From the NCBI RefSeq assembly GCF_045037415.1, contig NZ_CP173438.1: a DNA stretch of 64,000 nucleotides; one strand, 5' to 3'. Made by a program: the position numbers and the translations under genes. How positions within the stretch are numbered: the stretch's first letter is position 1; each line of letters starts with the position of its first letter. Below are positions 3,056 through 56,996 of the stretch, in pieces. Origin of the DNA: Escherichia coli (GTDB taxonomy: Bacteria > Pseudomonadota > Gammaproteobacteria > Enterobacterales > Enterobacteriaceae). The notes below the pieces were generated by a model that did no database searches, was not told where the DNA came from, and saw only the letters and a program-made list of their open reading frames with translations.

Positions 3056-3835
3056 ATGCAAACCATCACCATCGCCCCACCCAAGCGCAGCTGGTTCTCG
3101 CTTCTGAGCTGGGCCGTTGTTATCGCCGTGCTGGTCGTCTCGTGGCAGGGCGCGGAAATGGCCCCGCTTACGCTGATTAAAGATGGCGGCAACATGGCGA
3201 CGTTCGCCGCCGACTTCTTCCCGCCCGATTTCAGCCAGTGGCAGGATTACCTCACCGAAATGGCCGTCACGCTGCAAATCGCCGTCTGGGGCACCGCGCT
3301 GGCGGTGGTTCTCTCCATCCCCTTCGGCCTGATGAGCGCTGAAAACCTGGTACCGTGGTGGGTCTACCAACCTGTACGCCGCCTGATGGACGCCTGCCGC
3401 GCCATTAACGAAATGGTCTTCGCCATGCTGTTCGTGGTCGCCGTCGGCCTCGGCCCGTTCGCTGGCGTGCTGGCGCTGTTTATCCACACCACCGGCGTGC
3501 TCTCCAAGCTGCTTTCCGAAGCGGTGGAAGCGATCGAACCCGGCCCGGTGGAGGGCATTCGCGCCACCGGTGCCAACAAGCTGGAAGAGATCCTTTACGG
3601 CGTACTACCGCAGGTCATGCCGCTGCTGATTTCCTACTCTCTCTATCGCTTCGAATCCAACGTCCGCTCGGCGACCGTCGTCGGTATGGTTGGCGCGGGC
3701 GGGATCGGCGTCACGCTGTGGGAAGCGATTCGCGGTTTCCAGTTCCAGCAAACCTGCGCCCTGATGGTGCTCATCATCGTCACGGTCAGCCTGCTGGATT
3801 TCCTCTCTCAACGGTTGCGTAAGCACTTTATCTGA
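3056..3835 (+). CDS. phnE: PhnE, phosphonate ABC transporter permease, intact reading frame (259 aa)
   Basis: ATG at 3056 with GGAG RBS (the longer six-frame ORF from 2993 starts inside the REP); multi-TM permease translation [19 protein letters not shown]...; uninterrupted, unlike the K-12 pseudogene as recalled. Confidence 0.88.
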
Positions 3836-3855
3836 TAAGCGAGGCATTGATATCT

Positions 3856-4581
3856 ATGCACTTGTCTACACATCCGACCAGCTACCCAACACGCTATCAG
3901 GAGATAGCCGCAAAACTTGAGCAGGAGCTTCGTCAACACTACCGCTGCGGCGACTATCTTCCCGCCGAGCAGCAACTGGCGGCGCGCTTTGAGGTGAACC
4001 GCCACACCCTGCGCCGCGCCATCGACCAACTGGTGGAAAAAGGCTGGGTACAGCGCCGTCAGGGCGTCGGCGTACTGGTGCTGATGCGCCCGTTCGATTA
4101 CCCGCTCAACGCCCAGGCGCGTTTTAGCCAGAACCTGCTGGACCAGGGCAGCCATCCCACCAGCGAAAAATTGCTATCGGTGCTGCGCCCCGCCTCCGGT
4201 CACGTCGCTGACGCGCTGGGGATAACCGAGGGGGAGAACGTCATCCACCTGCGCACCCTGCGTCGGGTCAACGGCGTCGCGCTCTGTTTAATCGACCACT
4301 ACTTTGCGGACCTCACCCTCTGGCCGACGCTGCAACGTTTCGACAGCGGTTCGCTGCACGATTTTCTGCGCGAGCAAACGGGGATTACGCTACGACGCAG
4401 TCAGACGCGGATCAGCGCCCGTCGCGCCCAGGCCAAAGAGTGCCAGCGTCTTGAAATCCCGAATCTGTCGCCGCTGCTGTGCGTGCGCACCCTTAACCAC
4501 CGTGACGGTGAAAGCAGCCCGGCGGAGTACTCCGTCAGCCTGACGCGCGCCGACATGATTGAATTCACTATGGAGCACTGA
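3856..4581 (+). CDS. phnF: PhnF, GntR-family transcriptional regulator of the phn operon (241 aa)
   Basis: ATG at 3856 (track ORF begins at an upstream TTG); MHLSTHPTSYPTRYQEIAAKLEQELRQ... N-terminal HTH. Confidence 0.9.
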   Translation: MHLSTHPTSYPTRYQEIAAKLEQELRQHYRCGDYLPAEQQLAARFEVNRHTLRRAIDQLVEKGWVQRRQGVGVLVLMRPFDYPLNAQARFSQNLLDQGSHPTSEKLLSVLRPASGHVADALGITEGENVIHLRTLRRVNGVALCLIDHYFADLTLWPTLQRFDSGSLHDFLREQTGITLRRSQTRISARRAQAKECQRLEIPNLSPLLCVRTLNHRDGESSPAEYSVSLTRADMIEFTMEH

Positions 4582-5034
4582 ATGCACGCAGATACCGCGA
4601 CCCGCCAGCACTGGATGTCCGTGCTGGCGCACAGCCAACCGGCTGAACTGGCAGCCCGCCTGAACGCGCTGAACATCAACGCCGATTATGAGGTGATCCG
4701 CGCCGCTGAAACTGGCCTGGTGCAGATTCAGGCGCGAATGGGCGGCACCGGCGAACGCTTTTTTGCTGGCGACGCCACGCTCACCCGCGCCGCCGTGCGT
4801 CTGACTGACGGCACGCTCGGCTATAGCTGGGTGCTGGGGCGCGACAAACAGCACGCCGAACGTTGTGCGCTGATTGATGCGCTGATGCAGCAAAACCGCC
4901 ACTTTCAAAACTTATCAGAAACCCTTATCGCCCCGCTGGACGCTGACCGTATGGCACGCATTGCCGCGCGCCAGGCCGAAGTGAACGCCAGCCGGGTCGA
5001 CTTCTTTACGATGGTTCGCGGAGACAACGCATGA
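4582..5034 (+). CDS. phnG: PhnG, C-P lyase core complex subunit (150 aa)
   Basis: Start abuts the phnF stop; length and sequence match PhnG as recalled. Confidence 0.92.
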
Positions 5035-5615
5035 CCCTGGAAACCGCTTTTATGCTTCCCGTGCAGGATGCCCAGCACAGTTTTCGTCGCCTGTTAAAGG
5101 CCATGAGCGAGCCGGGCGTGATTGTCGCCCTGCATCAGCTCAAGCGCGGCTGGCAGCCGCTGAATATCGCCACCACCAGCGTGCTGCTGACGCTGGCCGA
5201 TAACGACACGCCGGTGTGGCTTGCCGCGCCATTGAGCAACGATATCGTCAATCAGAGCCTGCGTTTTCATACCAACGCGTCGCTGGTTAATCAGCCGGAA
5301 CAGGCGACCTTCGCGGTAACAGATGAGGCGATCTCCAGCGAGCAGCTCAACGCCCTTTCCACCGGCACTGCCGTTGCACCAGAAGCGGGCGCAACGCTGA
5401 TTTTACAGGTCACCAGCCTGAGCGGCGGGCGTATGTTGCGCCTCACCGGCGCAGGTATTGCCGAAGAACGGATGATCGCCCCGCAACTGCCAAAGTGCAT
5501 TCTTCATGAACTTACCGAGCGCCCGCACCCGTTCCCGCTCGGCATCGACCTGATCCTGACCTGCGGCGAGCGCCTGCTGGCTATTCCGCGAACCACTCAT
5601 GTGGAGGTGTGCTGA
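5031..5615 (+). CDS. phnH: PhnH, C-P lyase core complex subunit (194 aa)
   Basis: ATGA overlap with phnG; operon context. Confidence 0.92.
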
Positions 5616-6679
5616 TGTACGTTGCCGTGAAAGGGGGCGAAAAGGCGATCGACGCCGCCCACGCCCTGCAAGAGAGCCGACGCCGGGGCGATACTGATTT
5701 GCCTGAACTGAGCGTCGCCCAGATTGAACAGCAGCTTAACCTCGCGGTAGATCGCGTGATGACCGAAGGCGGTATTGCCGACCGCGAGCTGGCCGCGCTG
5801 GCGCTGAAACAGGCCAGCGGCGATAACGTCGAAGCGATTTTTCTGTTGCGCGCCTACCGCACCACGCTGGCGAAGCTGGCGGTCAGTGAGCCGCTCGACA
5901 CCACCGGGATGCGTCTCGAACGGCGTATTTCAGCAATTTATAAAGACATTCCCGGCGGCCAACTGCTTGGCCCCACCTACGACTACACCCATCGCCTGCT
6001 CGATTTCACCCTGCTGGCAAACGGCGAAACGCCAACGCTGACCACCGCTGACAGCGAACAGCAACCGTCGCCACACGTCTTCAGCCTGCTGGCGCGTCAG
6101 GGGCTGGCGAAGTTTGAAGAAGATAGCGGCGCACAACCGGACGACATCACCCGCACGCCGCCGGTTTATCCCTGTTCGCGTTCTTCCCGTCTACAACAAT
6201 TAATGCGCGGTGACGAAGGCTATTTGTTGGCGCTGGCCTACTCCACCCAACGCGGTTACGGGCGCAATCACCCGTTCGCAGGCGAAATTCGCAGTGGCTA
6301 TATCGATATATTTATTGTGCCGGAAGAGCTGGGATTTGCGGTGAACGTCGGCGAATTGTTGATGACCGAGTGTGAAATGGTCAACGGTTTTATCGACCCG
6401 CCGGATGAACCACCGCATTTTACACGCGGCTATGGGCTGGTGTTCGGCATGAGCGAGCGCAAAGCAATGGCGATGGCGCTGGTTGACCGTGCGTTGCAGG
6501 CACCGGAATACGGCGAGCACGCAACAGGTCCGGCACAGGATGAAGAGTTCGTGCTGGCCCATGCCGACAACGTCGAAGCCGCAGGCTTTGTTTCGCATCT
6601 CAAACTCCCGCACTACGTCGATTTCCAGGCCGAACTGGAGCTACTCAAACGTCTGCAACAGGAGCAGAACCATGGCTAA
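5615..6679 (+). CDS. phnI: PhnI, ribosyl-transferring C-P lyase subunit (354 aa)
   Basis: ATG at 5615 giving [13 protein letters not shown]...; track ORF starts at an upstream GTG. Confidence 0.92.
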   Translation: MYVAVKGGEKAIDAAHALQESRRRGDTDLPELSVAQIEQQLNLAVDRVMTEGGIADRELAALALKQASGDNVEAIFLLRAYRTTLAKLAVSEPLDTTGMRLERRISAIYKDIPGGQLLGPTYDYTHRLLDFTLLANGETPTLTTADSEQQPSPHVFSLLARQGLAKFEEDSGAQPDDITRTPPVYPCSRSSRLQQLMRGDEGYLLALAYSTQRGYGRNHPFAGEIRSGYIDIFIVPEELGFAVNVGELLMTECEMVNGFIDPPDEPPHFTRGYGLVFGMSERKAMAMALVDRALQAPEYGEHATGPAQDEEFVLAHADNVEAAGFVSHLKLPHYVDFQAELELLKRLQQEQNHG

Positions 6680-50373: not shown

Positions 50374-50378
50374 GTCGG

Positions 50379-50400
50379 GTTGGCGGGCTCGCCCGCCAAC
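50379..50400. terminator. Bidirectional hairpin between the LysR gene and yjcE
   Basis: GTTGGCGGGC-tc-GCCCGCCAAC perfect 10-bp stem in a 35-bp convergent spacer. Confidence 0.75.
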
Positions 50401-50408
50401 CATGCAGA

Positions 50409-53558: not shown

Positions 53559-54080
53559 AAGAAAACATCCCCTGAGAGTTTAATTTTCGTCAAGATGCGT
53601 GGCGGACAATCCCCTGCCAGCGAAACGTTATCTTCCTGCTCCAGGTTTGCGACAATTTGCTGCGTCGCAAAAAAAGCAAACGTTTAGCTCCGCGCATACA
53701 AAACGGGTGGTAAAAAAAGCAAACGATTATCCGGCGATCATAGCGGCTTTTTCAACCGAAGTTTGCTGCTTTTTTCTCTTTTATTGTCTTGACGATGAAA
53801 AACCAGGCAATTGATGCGCAAACGTTATCGTCGATGCGCAAGATTGCAGCGTTATCGAGCCGTATACCGTTCAGGATTGCGATAAAAAATCGTCTGAGAT
53901 GACAAAAATATTGCGGCTAAAAAGTGTACTTTTACACTGGCGAAGAAACGCCGGTAACATACAATTAAAGCATCAACACCAACCGGAACCTCCACCACGT
54001 GCTCGAATGAGGTGTGTTGACGTCGGGGGAAACCCTCCTGTGTACCAGCGGGATAGAGAGAAAGACAAAGACCGGAAAAC

Positions 54081-54111
54081 AAACTAAAGCGCCCTTGTGG
54101 CGCTTTAGTTT
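54081..54111. terminator. Hairpin at the 3' end of soxR
   Basis: AAACTAAAGCGCC-cttgt-GGCGCTTTAGTTT 13-bp stem overlapping the soxR stop codon. Confidence 0.6.
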
Positions 54112-54569
54112 TGTTCATCTTCCAGTAAGCGTGCGCCGGTACCTTCTTCTCCTAAGCGGTCGCCCGGGTTACGCAACGGGCAATCACTGCGCGAAAGGCA
54201 GCCACAACCAATACATCCATCCAGTTCGTCACGCAGCGCCACTAAGGTATGAATGCGCCGATCCAACTCTTCTCGCCATTGGGACGAAAGCTGTTTCCAC
54301 TCTTTCGCACTTAACGTATGCCCTTCTGGCAACACGCCAAACGCTTCACGAATGGTTGCGAGCGGAATGCCAATACGCTGAGCAATTTTGATAATTGCGA
54401 CATATCGCAACACATCACGTTTATATCGCCGCTGATTGCCGCTATTACGGATACTGGTAATCAACCCTTTGCTTTCATAGAAATGCAGCGCCGATACCGC
54501 CACACCGCTGCGTTTCGCCACTTCGCCGGGTGTTAGCAGCGCTTTAATGCGGGGTAATTTCTTTTCCAT
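54105..54569 (-). CDS. soxR: SoxR, MerR-family redox-sensing [2Fe-2S] transcriptional activator (154 aa)
   Basis: C-terminal [12 protein letters not shown] cluster motif; N-terminal MerR HTH. Confidence 0.96.
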
Positions 54570-54580
54570 AAATCGCTTTA

Positions 54581-54598
54581 CCTCAAGTTAACTTGAGG
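54581..54598. promoter_or_regulatory. SoxR operator (18-bp perfect palindrome) in the soxS promoter
   Basis: CCTCAAGTTAACTTGAGG in the soxR-soxS divergent spacer. Confidence 0.9.
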
Positions 54599-54654
54599 AA
54601 TTATACTCCCCAACAGATGAATTAACGAACTGAACACTGAAAAGAGGCAGATTT

Positions 54655-54978
54655 ATGTCCCATCAGAAAATTATTCAGGATCTTATCGCATGGATTGACG
54701 AGCATATTGACCAGCCGCTTAACATTGATGTCGTCGCAAAAAAATCTGGCTATTCAAAGTGGTACTTGCAACGGATGTTCCGCACGGTGACGCATCAGAC
54801 GCTTGGCGATTACATTCGCCAGCGCCGTCTGTTACTGGCCGCCGTTGAGTTGCGCACCACCGAGCGTCCGATTTTTGATATCGCAATGGACCTGGGTTAT
54901 GTCTCTCAGCAGACCTTCTCCCGCGTTTTCCGTCGGCAGTTTGATCGCACTCCCAGCGATTATCGCCACCGCCTGTAG
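54655..54978 (+). CDS. soxS: SoxS, AraC-family superoxide-response activator (107 aa)
   Basis: Translation MSHQKIIQDLIAWIDEHIDQPLNIDVVAKKSGYSKWYLQRMF... Confidence 0.96.
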   Translation: MSHQKIIQDLIAWIDEHIDQPLNIDVVAKKSGYSKWYLQRMFRTVTHQTLGDYIRQRRLLLAAVELRTTERPIFDIAMDLGYVSQQTFSRVFRRQFDRTPSDYRHRL

Positions 54979-54980
54979 TT

Positions 54981-56567
54981 TTATTGCCCGCGCGTTAATT
55001 CCCGCGCGGGTAATTGCTCCATCCATTGCATAAACACCTGCGGCGGCATCGCCTTCGCGAAGAACCATCCCTGGCAATAGCGCACGCCGCGTTTGCGCAG
55101 CCAGTTAACCTGCGCCTCAGTTTCGACACCTTCAGCAATCGTTTTTAACCCCAGGCTGTGCGCCAGCTCGATGATGTGTTCCGCAATCAAATGACTGGTT
55201 TTGTGGGTGGTCAGCGTCTCAACAAACGATTTATCGATTTTCAAAATATCGACATTCAATGATTTAAGGTTATGCAAGTTAGAGTAGCCAATACCAAAAT
55301 CATCAATTGCCACTTCGTAACCGGCCTTGCGGAAAGCCAGAATAATCGGCGTCATTTTGTCGACATCAAGAAATGCATGTTCAGTCACTTCAAATTTAAT
55401 TTGCTGCGGGCGCACCGCATGTTGCTCTGTTTTCTGATTGGTTCGCGCTATCAACCGTGAGGTATGAAAATCGGAGGCTGACAGGTTAATAGAAACATAG
55501 CGATCGGCATGTGTTGCCAGATACGCGCCCAAATCGCGGAAGACATTATCAATAACATAATCAGTTACCTGTTCGATCATCCCCTCCTTTTCTGCCAGCG
55601 GAATAAACTCTGCCGGATTCATTACTTGCCCCTGCTCACCGGGCCAACGTAACAACGCTTCAGCGCCGATACATTTTTCTGTTTTGATATCGATTATTGG
55701 CTGGTAATAAAGGAAAAGTTGATGTTTTTCGAGGGCGCGTTGCAATTTGCGTTTGGGAGACAAATAGTTTTGTCGAATACGTAGCCAGAGTAATAGCAGA
55801 ACAAGACTCCCCAAAATACCGGCGGGCAACGCAAAAATAAGATGATTATAAAAATGGGTTATAAGACGTTGATATGAAGTCGCAACAATGGCCGCAATTG
55901 GGCGTTTTGTCGAATAAACTGTCGCATATAAATAGCCATTTCGTTGTACGGTTAAATCATTCAAACGAATCAGCGGAGAAAACGTTGCTGCCGAGGCCTC
56001 GTTGCTTAACGAGAAAAAGGTTTTCGTCACCGTATCATACACACCCCATTGCAATGTCGGATCATCAGACATCACTTCACTCCAGAAGAGAGGGTTAATG
56101 ACCGCTACATAATTCCCCCGCTGCATATAGGTCATTTTATAGCCTGAGAAAAAAGGCGTATCACGGTAATAATAGATAGAAACGTTAGGTTCACGCTTAT
56201 AATCGGCCGGTGCAATCGTATAGCCATTTACAGACGCTATCAGCGATGAGCATAAAAAATGGTTATCACGAGCATAAATCAATTCATTAATATAAAGATA
56301 GCCACGAATAATATTCAACATTCGCTTTTGATGGGCTGGAGTGCAAACTTGCCCCTGATAGCGTTCAGCTGCATCGCTCACTAAATCTGCCTGACGAATG
56401 ACCAGCTCAGATTTATCCAACGCCAGCTGAGCAAAAGTTCGGAGCTGATTATTCACTTCTGATTTTGCCCAAAAGAAGGCAATCCATAGCGACAGAATGA
56501 TGGGAAAGAGAACTAAAAAGATAATGCCCGGAAACGCCAGTAATTGGTGTCGTGCACGATGACTCAT
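54981..56567 (-). CDS. pdeC: PdeC (YjcC), membrane c-di-GMP phosphodiesterase with CSS-motif periplasmic and EAL domains (528 aa)
   Basis: Start at MSHRARHQ; EAL-domain signatures in the C-terminal half ([14 protein letters not shown]). Confidence 0.9.
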
Positions 56568-56996
56568 TGCTATCAATTCCCTGCCTGTTTATACCCGGTT
56601 ATTGCAAGGTGAAACCCTGGCTACCGACGTCTTTAGATAAATCTTACGGTATAAATAGCACTTTTGCCTGATATAAAATTGAGAACCTTTTTAATCGTCA
56701 CCAGGATGACGATAATTCATTGATCTTAAAAATTAATCACCTTCAGGAATGCAGAGGCGGCGGGAAGATATACCCTTAATGCCGCTGAAAAAACACATAA
56801 TCTGTACGGCAATAAAAGTCACGGCCTAATCTGGCTAACAAACAACCAATTGTGATATAGTTCACAAAATTCATGAAACAAACAGAGTGTTTCATTTTTG
56901 TGTTCTGCAAGCCCCGCGATAGCCAGAGTGTATCACGCCTCCCGTGAACAACGCCGCGCTGTCCAGGGCATCAGCTCTTTTTCGAGGAATTGTTTG

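Follow-up and report, generated by a model that had tools for sequence, protein, structure and literature searches.

At the 3' end of soxS, a gene induced by superoxide, the Escherichia coli chromosome holds a convergent junction where the stop codons of soxS and pdeC nearly touch and a GC-rich hairpin lies inside the last codons of pdeC. To which of the two transcripts does this hairpin belong, how does that transcript end, and does the arrangement tie the superoxide response to c-di-GMP turnover? These questions were addressed in a 64,000-nt stretch of E. coli contig NZ_CP173438.1 (hereafter the window), with feature coordinates collected in Table 1.

The 2-bp distance between the stop codons, first given in a preliminary description of this DNA, was found alike in the sequence, the ORF list, and the RefSeq annotation. 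The gene names used there agreed with the RefSeq annotation of strain 4/1-1 (NZ_CP023844), which is 100% identical to the window over positions 54600-55300 and carries soxS and pdeC with the same 2-bp gap. This chromosomal segment was matched in 5425 of 5426 complete E. coli genomes, with the same soxS/pdeC layout. The RefSeq neighbours in the window are soxR (-), soxS (+), pdeC (-), yjcB, and ssb. In K-12 MG1655, pdeC occupies 4275471-4277057 (+) and soxS 4277060-4277383 (-), likewise 2 bp apart (RefSeq). Coordinates were converted as K-12 position = 4332038 - window position, and within the 121 nt that surround the junction three positions distinguish K-12 from the window: the soxS stop codon (TAA for TAG), one base of the hairpin loop, and one base deeper in pdeC. 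PdeC comprises a CSS-motif domain (aa 39-243) and an EAL domain (aa 273-505; Pfam). By alignment, its 23-residue tail varies between genera, with changes among R, S, H, C, and G, and is 5 aa longer in S. diarizonae; it appears to tolerate change.

Convergent genes meet at seven junctions in the window, separated by 2, 27, 34, 35, 38, 98, and 488 bp. That of soxS/pdeC is the tightest, and it is not exceptional in kind. Because the junctions of about 30 bp hold one GC-rich hairpin apiece, the soxS element is of the same kind as the hairpins of its neighbours; its sole peculiarity is that the pdeC reading frame passes over it. As a separate observation, the yjbR/uvrA and lrgB/actP junctions of the window resemble canonical or bidirectional terminators.

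Table 1. Features of the soxS/pdeC junction, in window coordinates.
Feature	Position	Strand	Basis
soxS CDS, 107 aa	54655..54978	+	stop TAG 54976-54978; ORF list, RefSeq of 4/1-1 and K-12
soxS/pdeC spacer 'tt', 2 bp between stops	54979..54980	.	sequence read
soxS 3' UTR, 43-44 nt, almost wholly in pdeC frame	54979..55021	+	TRS terminus, coordinate conversion
pdeC CDS, 528 aa, CSS-motif + EAL	54981..56567	-	stop TAA 54981-54983; ORF list, RefSeq, Pfam
Extended 12-bp stem, soxS-sense RNA	54983..55014	+	folds of both strands
PdeC C-terminal tail, aa 506-528, beyond EAL	54984..55052	-	Pfam domain end, translation, tail alignment
Core hairpin, 8-bp G+C stem, 8-nt loop	54987..55010	+	sequence, fold, covariation
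C-rich, G-poor tract, candidate Rho loading region	55022..55200	+	soxS-sense, antisense to pdeC; C/G statistics

The core hairpin consists of CCCGCGCG (54987-54994), the loop ttaattcc (54995-55002), and CGCGCGGG (55003-55010), and in stem halves, loop, and coordinates it is exactly as first described, inside the last pdeC codons. The stem encodes PdeC residues 519-526 (PARELTRG by translation), which are followed by Q and the stop. In soxS-sense RNA the stem extends to 54983-54994 paired with 55003-55014 by the addition of A-U, U-A, U-A, and a single G·U pair; in pdeC-sense RNA an A·C mismatch weakens this extended stem (fold z = -1.9). The core stem begins 8 nt past the soxS stop and the extended stem 4 nt past it. 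A 61-nt soxS-sense segment folded at -23.7 kcal/mol (z = -3.95), a stability reached by 0 of 200 shuffles, and the soxS hairpin at -22.0 kcal/mol exceeded the best of 19 control windows inside pdeC (-16.5 kcal/mol). The window has 10 places with a perfect GC-rich hairpin of 8 bp or more, compared with 2.4 ± 1.4 in shuffled sequences, and the soxS hairpin is present at one place per genome in 5425 E. coli genomes.

A scan of 53700-55300 against Rfam at a permissive threshold gave no family at the hairpin; the only match was sraL, beside soxR. We also considered REP elements, which like the soxS hairpin are GC-rich palindromes, able to block exonucleases at mRNA 3' ends. The soxS hairpin differs from them in being single copy, in lacking the REP consensus, and in lying within coding sequence. 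Identity with a REP or BIME repeat was rejected on the absent consensus and on copy number, and the idea was dropped because the hairpin is single copy.

A published map of transcript ends places the end of the soxS mRNA directly behind this structure. The TRS data set (Nat Commun 2023, PMC10687069, Supplementary Data 4; MG1655, LB) lists a 'Primary' soxS 3' terminus at K-12 position 4277017 (-), with a 44-nt 3' UTR; this position, which comes from a single dataset at low coverage in LB, corresponds to window position 55021, which follows the extended stem by 7 nt and the core stem by 11 nt. The soxS 3' end thus lies 41 nt into the pdeC coding sequence, and the RNA ends in ...CGCGCGGGUAAUUGCUCCA. 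No additional termini are given in the TRS supplements within K-12 4276800-4277499. The Term-seq tables of Adams 2021 contain no 3' end at the junction, the one local entry lying at the start codon of soxS, and the SMRT-Cappable-seq supplements have no entries for soxS, soxR, or pdeC. A pdeC 3' end is listed in none of the TRS, Adams 2021 Term-seq, and SMRT-Cappable-seq tables.

The preliminary description had further proposed that transcripts of the two genes overlap or end within each other's coding sequence, which they would not do if soxS transcripts ended before position 54981. With the soxS end mapped by TRS at 55021, and with RNA-seq coverage of the pair overlapping in ExcludonFinder (NAR 2025, PMC12288877), this proposal is upheld. 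ExcludonFinder names pdeC-soxS among 165 convergent excludons of E. coli MG1655, each seen in half or more of 58 RNA-seq sets from that strain. The pair resembles other members of that list in being convergent genes with the overlapping transcripts that define them; when understood as a regulatory unit, an excludon calls for expression of its two genes to be mutually exclusive and for processing by RNase III, and the listing of pdeC-soxS is by coverage thresholds. The soxS and pdeC mRNAs do overlap, in an arrangement that is ordinary and already catalogued for this pair.

If the hairpin belonged to pdeC, it should follow that gene, and its distribution was therefore compared in soxS loci fetched from 80 Enterobacteriaceae species, 70 of which have pdeC downstream. 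In 64 of these 70 loci the stops lie between a 16-nt overlap and a 15-bp gap. The gap is +2 in two other pdeC-bearing Escherichia loci and in 16 Citrobacter loci; the stops overlap by 13 nt in S. diarizonae and by 16 nt in Klebsiella, Raoultella, and Trabulsiella, and in Enterobacter the spacing ranges from a 4-nt overlap to +6. By these comparisons the tight junction is old, and the exact position of its stops drifts. The GCCCGC...GCGGGC hairpin was found only in Escherichia, Salmonella, Citrobacter, and Intestinirhabdus within the 80-species survey. Many other genera that keep pdeC have a different structure no more than about 60 nt from the soxS stop, more stable than 19 control windows.

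Three lineages carry the hairpin in the absence of pdeC. Escherichia sp. MOD1-EC7003 has lost pdeC by a deletion equivalent to window positions ~55047-56756, which leaves a 66-nt remnant of the gene, and S. enterica arizonae lacks pdeC by a deletion of ~1.65 kb relative to S. diarizonae. In both the hairpin is kept intact directly after soxS, with the deletion breakpoints 36 nt and ~50 nt past it, respectively. Intestinirhabdus alba shows no pdeC homology at the locus; its hairpin, of 10 bp, shares the core and runs into UUUU. At Pseudocitrobacter and Kluyvera loci without pdeC, other GC-rich hairpins stand 3' of soxS, that of Pseudocitrobacter being a REP-like GCCGGATG...CATCCGGC element directly 3' of the gene.

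Covariation was assessed in an ungapped alignment of 24 sequences, 22 of them distinct; these sequences are phylogenetically related, and the statistics for covariation and for strand bias overstate their independence. Stem cells were paired in 90.9% of cases, compared with 32-56% when the partners were slid, and changes on both sides occurred at three stem pairs. The covariation score of 0.304 was reached by none of 500 shuffles (0.167 ± 0.021). Outside the stem, none of 35 four-fold degenerate pdeC columns was invariant among 15 genomes (mean top-base frequency 0.60), and within the stem the third-codon positions, at alignment columns 21 and 39, were unchanged in each of the 22 sequences. 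Depending on the sequence, R, S, H, C, or G is encoded by columns 21-23, with the paired bases retained throughout. With synonymous sites in the stem invariant and the encoded amino acids variable, selection has acted on the nucleotides and not on the PdeC protein.

The same alignment indicates the strand on which the structure is used. Stem cells included 23 G·U pairs and 1 A·C in the soxS sense, an excess that could derive partly from pdeC codon usage, and in 20 of the 22 sequences soxS-sense RNA folded more stably than pdeC-sense RNA (means -19.7 and -14.3 kcal/mol, respectively). By the G·U excess and the greater soxS-sense stability, the structure is maintained in the soxS transcript, and neither in the pdeC mRNA nor as a symmetric DNA or bidirectional element. 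The preliminary description had treated the hairpin solely as part of the 3' coding end of pdeC. By conservation, strand bias, and the lineages without pdeC, the hairpin belongs to the 3' end of the soxS mRNA, and the PdeC tail merely overprints it.

How the soxS mRNA comes to end at this stem-loop is a second matter. We favour, as somewhat the more probable course of events, a 3'-terminal stem-loop behind which polymerase is released by Rho and to which the RNA is then trimmed. The E. coli element has the GC-rich stem-loop near the stop codon that marks a canonical intrinsic terminator, but it has no 7-8 nt U-tract: the tail after the stem, UAAUUGCUCC, holds 3 U in 9 nt. A consensus terminator scan did not call the soxS hairpin. 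RNA polymerase leaving soxS would cross the 2-bp spacer and transcribe the hairpin in the last pdeC codons, and because no U-tract follows the stem, the majority of polymerases probably pass it without stopping. These would run on into C-rich RNA antisense to pdeC, where Rho would release them, perhaps together with head-on conflict with pdeC transcription, and 3'-to-5' exonucleases would trim the RNA back to the protective stem-loop, giving the steady-state end at 55021. The PdeC frame would simply run over the element, its non-domain C-terminal tail overprinted on the stem, and as a result the soxS and pdeC mRNAs would be complementary over at least 41 nt.

This sequence of events is modelled on a described class of transcripts. 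Dar & Sorek 2018 reported, for 462 transcripts, that Rho-dependent 3' ends appear as precise steady-state ends just past stable stem-loops without U-tracts, with C enriched over G downstream and some ends inside downstream coding regions; the ends are made by PNPase and RNase II trimming to the protective structure. The soxS end is alike in lying at a precise position past a GC-rich stem-loop, with no U-tract, no upstream A-tract, and C in excess of G downstream, and in falling within downstream coding sequence; dependence on Rho and trimming by PNPase/RNase II are features of their transcripts, to which soxS is likened by its sequence and its mapped end. The C/G ratio downstream of the stem is 1.45-1.69 over ~170 nt, at the 96th percentile of 170-nt windows across the window, and the enrichment is moderate on 78-nt windows (89th percentile). 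At 4275-4277 kb in K-12 no Rho region is entered in the table of Adams 2021, whose conditions leave soxS barely expressed.

The strongest rival, which we regard as possible though rather unlikely, is a weak, non-canonical intrinsic terminator in which the stem-loop and the following UAAUU/UGCU release some polymerases at ~55021, with no trimming. A GC-rich stem (-22 to -24 kcal/mol) stands 8 nt past the soxS stop, and the mapped end lies at the canonical distance: 7 nt behind the extended stem, it is as compatible with intrinsic termination as with trimming. In the Salmonella orthologues this stem is followed by a U-tract, with 5-6 U among 9 nt, and the tails of Salmonella and Intestinirhabdus (GUUUGUUGU and AGCCUUUUC) are U-richer than that of E. 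coli. Dar & Sorek 2018 themselves note that similar sites may be inefficient intrinsic terminators with Rho as a backup. Against this reading, U content is low in E. coli, the terminal 8 nt of its RNA (UUGCUCCA) would make a stable RNA:DNA hybrid, the consensus scan passed the site over, and Citrobacter tails have 1-4 U. Across these genera it is the stem that is conserved and not the U content.

A very unlikely alternative is that the palindrome serves both genes, as a shared bidirectional terminator or as a site that positions head-on collisions between RNA polymerases, and so defines the 3' ends of soxS and pdeC together. Bidirectional terminators described by SEnd-seq (Liu laboratory; bioRxiv 10.1101/2022.10.23.513370) are similar in having one GC-rich hairpin at a tight convergent junction, and the soxS 3' end lies ~7 nt past the stem as at a terminator. 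The two genes converge at 2 bp with a single palindromic element at the junction, other tight convergent junctions of the window hold one hairpin each, coverage of pdeC-soxS overlaps, and a stem-loop has been reported to be necessary for collisions at defined positions between convergent E. coli genes. A bidirectional terminator, however, should have strands of equal strength, an A-tract paired with a U-tract, and a 3' end for each gene, and none of these was found. The stem is asymmetric, with soxS-sense G·U pairs becoming A·C in the pdeC sense (23 against 1) and the strand difference in folding energy given above. There is no flanking A-tract/U-tract pair, E. coli having no U-tract and the pdeC-sense tail CAAUAAAAC being A-rich, and neither the TRS nor the Term-seq tables list a pdeC 3' end. 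The hairpin lies inside one reading frame, upstream of the pdeC stop and not between the stops, so that a ribosome translating pdeC would unwind the stem, and it remains where pdeC has been lost. Finally, pdeC depends on σS and soxS on superoxide, and frequent simultaneous convergent transcription is not expected. Another reading, in which PdeC coding gave rise to the palindrome incidentally or the inverted repeat arose by chance, without any role at the RNA level, is hardly credible: it does lie wholly within pdeC codons, and GC-rich codons for Pro, Ala, Arg, and Gly can yield palindromes, but this reading was rejected on the three pdeC-less lineages and the frozen synonymous sites, and it also conflicts with a tail outside EAL whose amino acids vary while the paired bases stay fixed, with the compensatory stem changes, with the fold z-score, with a transcript end mapping beside the hairpin, and with the use of C-terminally tagged PdeC in activity and processing assays.

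Given the soxS mRNA stem-loop with Rho release and trimming as the preferred account, there is still the question whether the junction acts as a regulatory node. Cross-talk in cis, including pdeC read-through across soxS into soxR, is in our estimate improbable. If it were true, strong soxS induction would reduce PdeC in cis by driving polymerases, and with them antisense RNA, into pdeC. In the other direction, pdeC transcripts would traverse the whole of soxS in antisense and reach soxR, which shares the strand of pdeC. Such a 'noncontiguous operon', pdeC-(anti-soxS)-soxR, would couple σS and c-di-GMP control to the superoxide sensor. The pdeC-sense RNA past the pdeC stop is G-rich (C/G 0.57, 4th percentile) and a poor Rho substrate, and the terminator scan gave no terminator-like site for pdeC transcripts past that stop; pdeC transcripts could therefore read on into soxR. 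Heavy simultaneous convergent transcription is not obviously expected, since pdeC has been reported to be controlled by σS and soxS responds to superoxide. A literature search for bicyclomycin, RNase III, or paraquat in connection with soxS-pdeC returned nothing specific, its matches concerning promoter activity, plasmid yjcC homologues, and Klebsiella point mutations. In Klebsiella, yjcC mRNA has been reported to go up, not down, with paraquat, in dependence on soxRS. The qRT-PCR behind this result may be non-strand-specific, and soxS read-through could contribute to it.

Much of this junction was on record: K-12 annotations have shown the arrangement for decades, and both the 3' end, as a table entry, and the overlap, as a listed pair, had been published. 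The additions made here are modest, namely that the hairpin belongs to soxS, that it is under selection at the RNA level, and that the PdeC tail is overprinted on it. Beyond good annotation their importance is small; if cross-talk were real, oxidative-stress sensing would be linked in cis to biofilm signalling. For work on either gene the practical meaning is more direct. What constrains the last ~8 codons of pdeC is the stem-loop at the soxS mRNA 3' end, not the function of PdeC, so chromosomal C-terminal tags on pdeC or deletions there would be likely to disturb soxS mRNA 3'-end formation. Edits at the 3' end of soxS would in turn be likely to disturb pdeC, and an 'induction' of pdeC/yjcC by superoxide seen in non-strand-specific assays could include soxS read-through.

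The hairpin that lies inside the last pdeC codons at the convergent soxS-pdeC junction is enclosed by a larger imperfect inverted repeat, with one arm (CGCCACCGCCUG) formed by the final codons of soxS and its partner (CACCUGCGGCGGC) antisense to the codons for PdeC 'MPPQ'. Folds of 121 nt gave z = -4.7 on the plus strand and z = -4.05 on the minus strand. Because the larger repeat extends past the mapped soxS 3' end, it could form in read-through RNA only. Both arms are protein-constrained, and for this reason the repeat may be coincidental.

Positions of features in the window
Feature	Position	Strand
ABC transporter, five genes	~29.3-34.4 kb	
LysR regulator, CidA/LrgA and LrgB genes	~48.3-50.4 kb	
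Hairpin, yjcE/LysR-like junction	50378-50401	
SraL/RyjA	53972-54112	+
SraL/RyjA terminator hairpin	54081-54111	
soxR stop codon	54105-54107	-
pdeC-sense RNA beyond the pdeC stop	54980 to ~54570	-
Term-seq 3' end (K-12 4277382)	~54656	+ (soxS sense)
Larger inverted repeat, arms	54964-54975 with 55036-55050	

At the other end of soxS, the Term-seq data of Adams 2021 include a strong 3' end that falls on base two of the start codon, which implies a short RNA consisting of the soxS 5' leader alone.

On the opposite side of the soxRS pair, the sRNA SraL/RyjA (Rfam RF01408, 153 bits; ryjA in the K-12 annotation) is convergent with soxR and overlaps its stop codon, and the SraL/RyjA terminator hairpin overlaps the last soxR codons. 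This arrangement mirrors the soxS/pdeC junction. The convergent yjcE/LysR-like junction, with a gap of 35 bp, contains a perfect 10-bp hairpin (GGTTGGCGGG/CCCGCCAACC); as at the soxS hairpin, a U-tract is absent on both strands, and this hairpin is a candidate for a further stem-loop-protected 3' end. The LysR, CidA/LrgA and LrgB genes lie between yjcE and actP, and the ABC transporter between yjcO and fdhF; neither set is known from these places in K-12.

Among the soxS loci of 80 Enterobacteriaceae species, pdeC was missing in ten (L003, L006, L007, L035, L044, L066, L071, L076, L078, and L082). Inspection of the region 3' of soxS in these loci (~3325-3700) revealed that at least two of the absences are clean deletions of ~1.65-1.7 kb that place yjcB beside soxS. 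In Pseudocitrobacter a REP-like GCCGGATG...CATCCGGC element follows soxS in place of pdeC. Four loci from Kosakonia and relatives (L050, L053, L056, and L058; ~3325-6100) carry insertions of 449-2814 bp between soxS and pdeC, which start with a conserved sequence (CAACCATCAAAGCAGCG...) and a hairpin of their own.

The pdeC-sense RNA beyond the pdeC stop is antisense to the entire soxS gene and then leads into soxR, a gene that shares its strand with pdeC. This stretch is G-rich (C/G 0.57, 4th percentile), and no terminator-like site was found along it. Given a G-rich, terminator-less RNA that is antisense to soxS and leads into soxR, read-through of the form pdeC-(anti-soxS)-soxR is possible.
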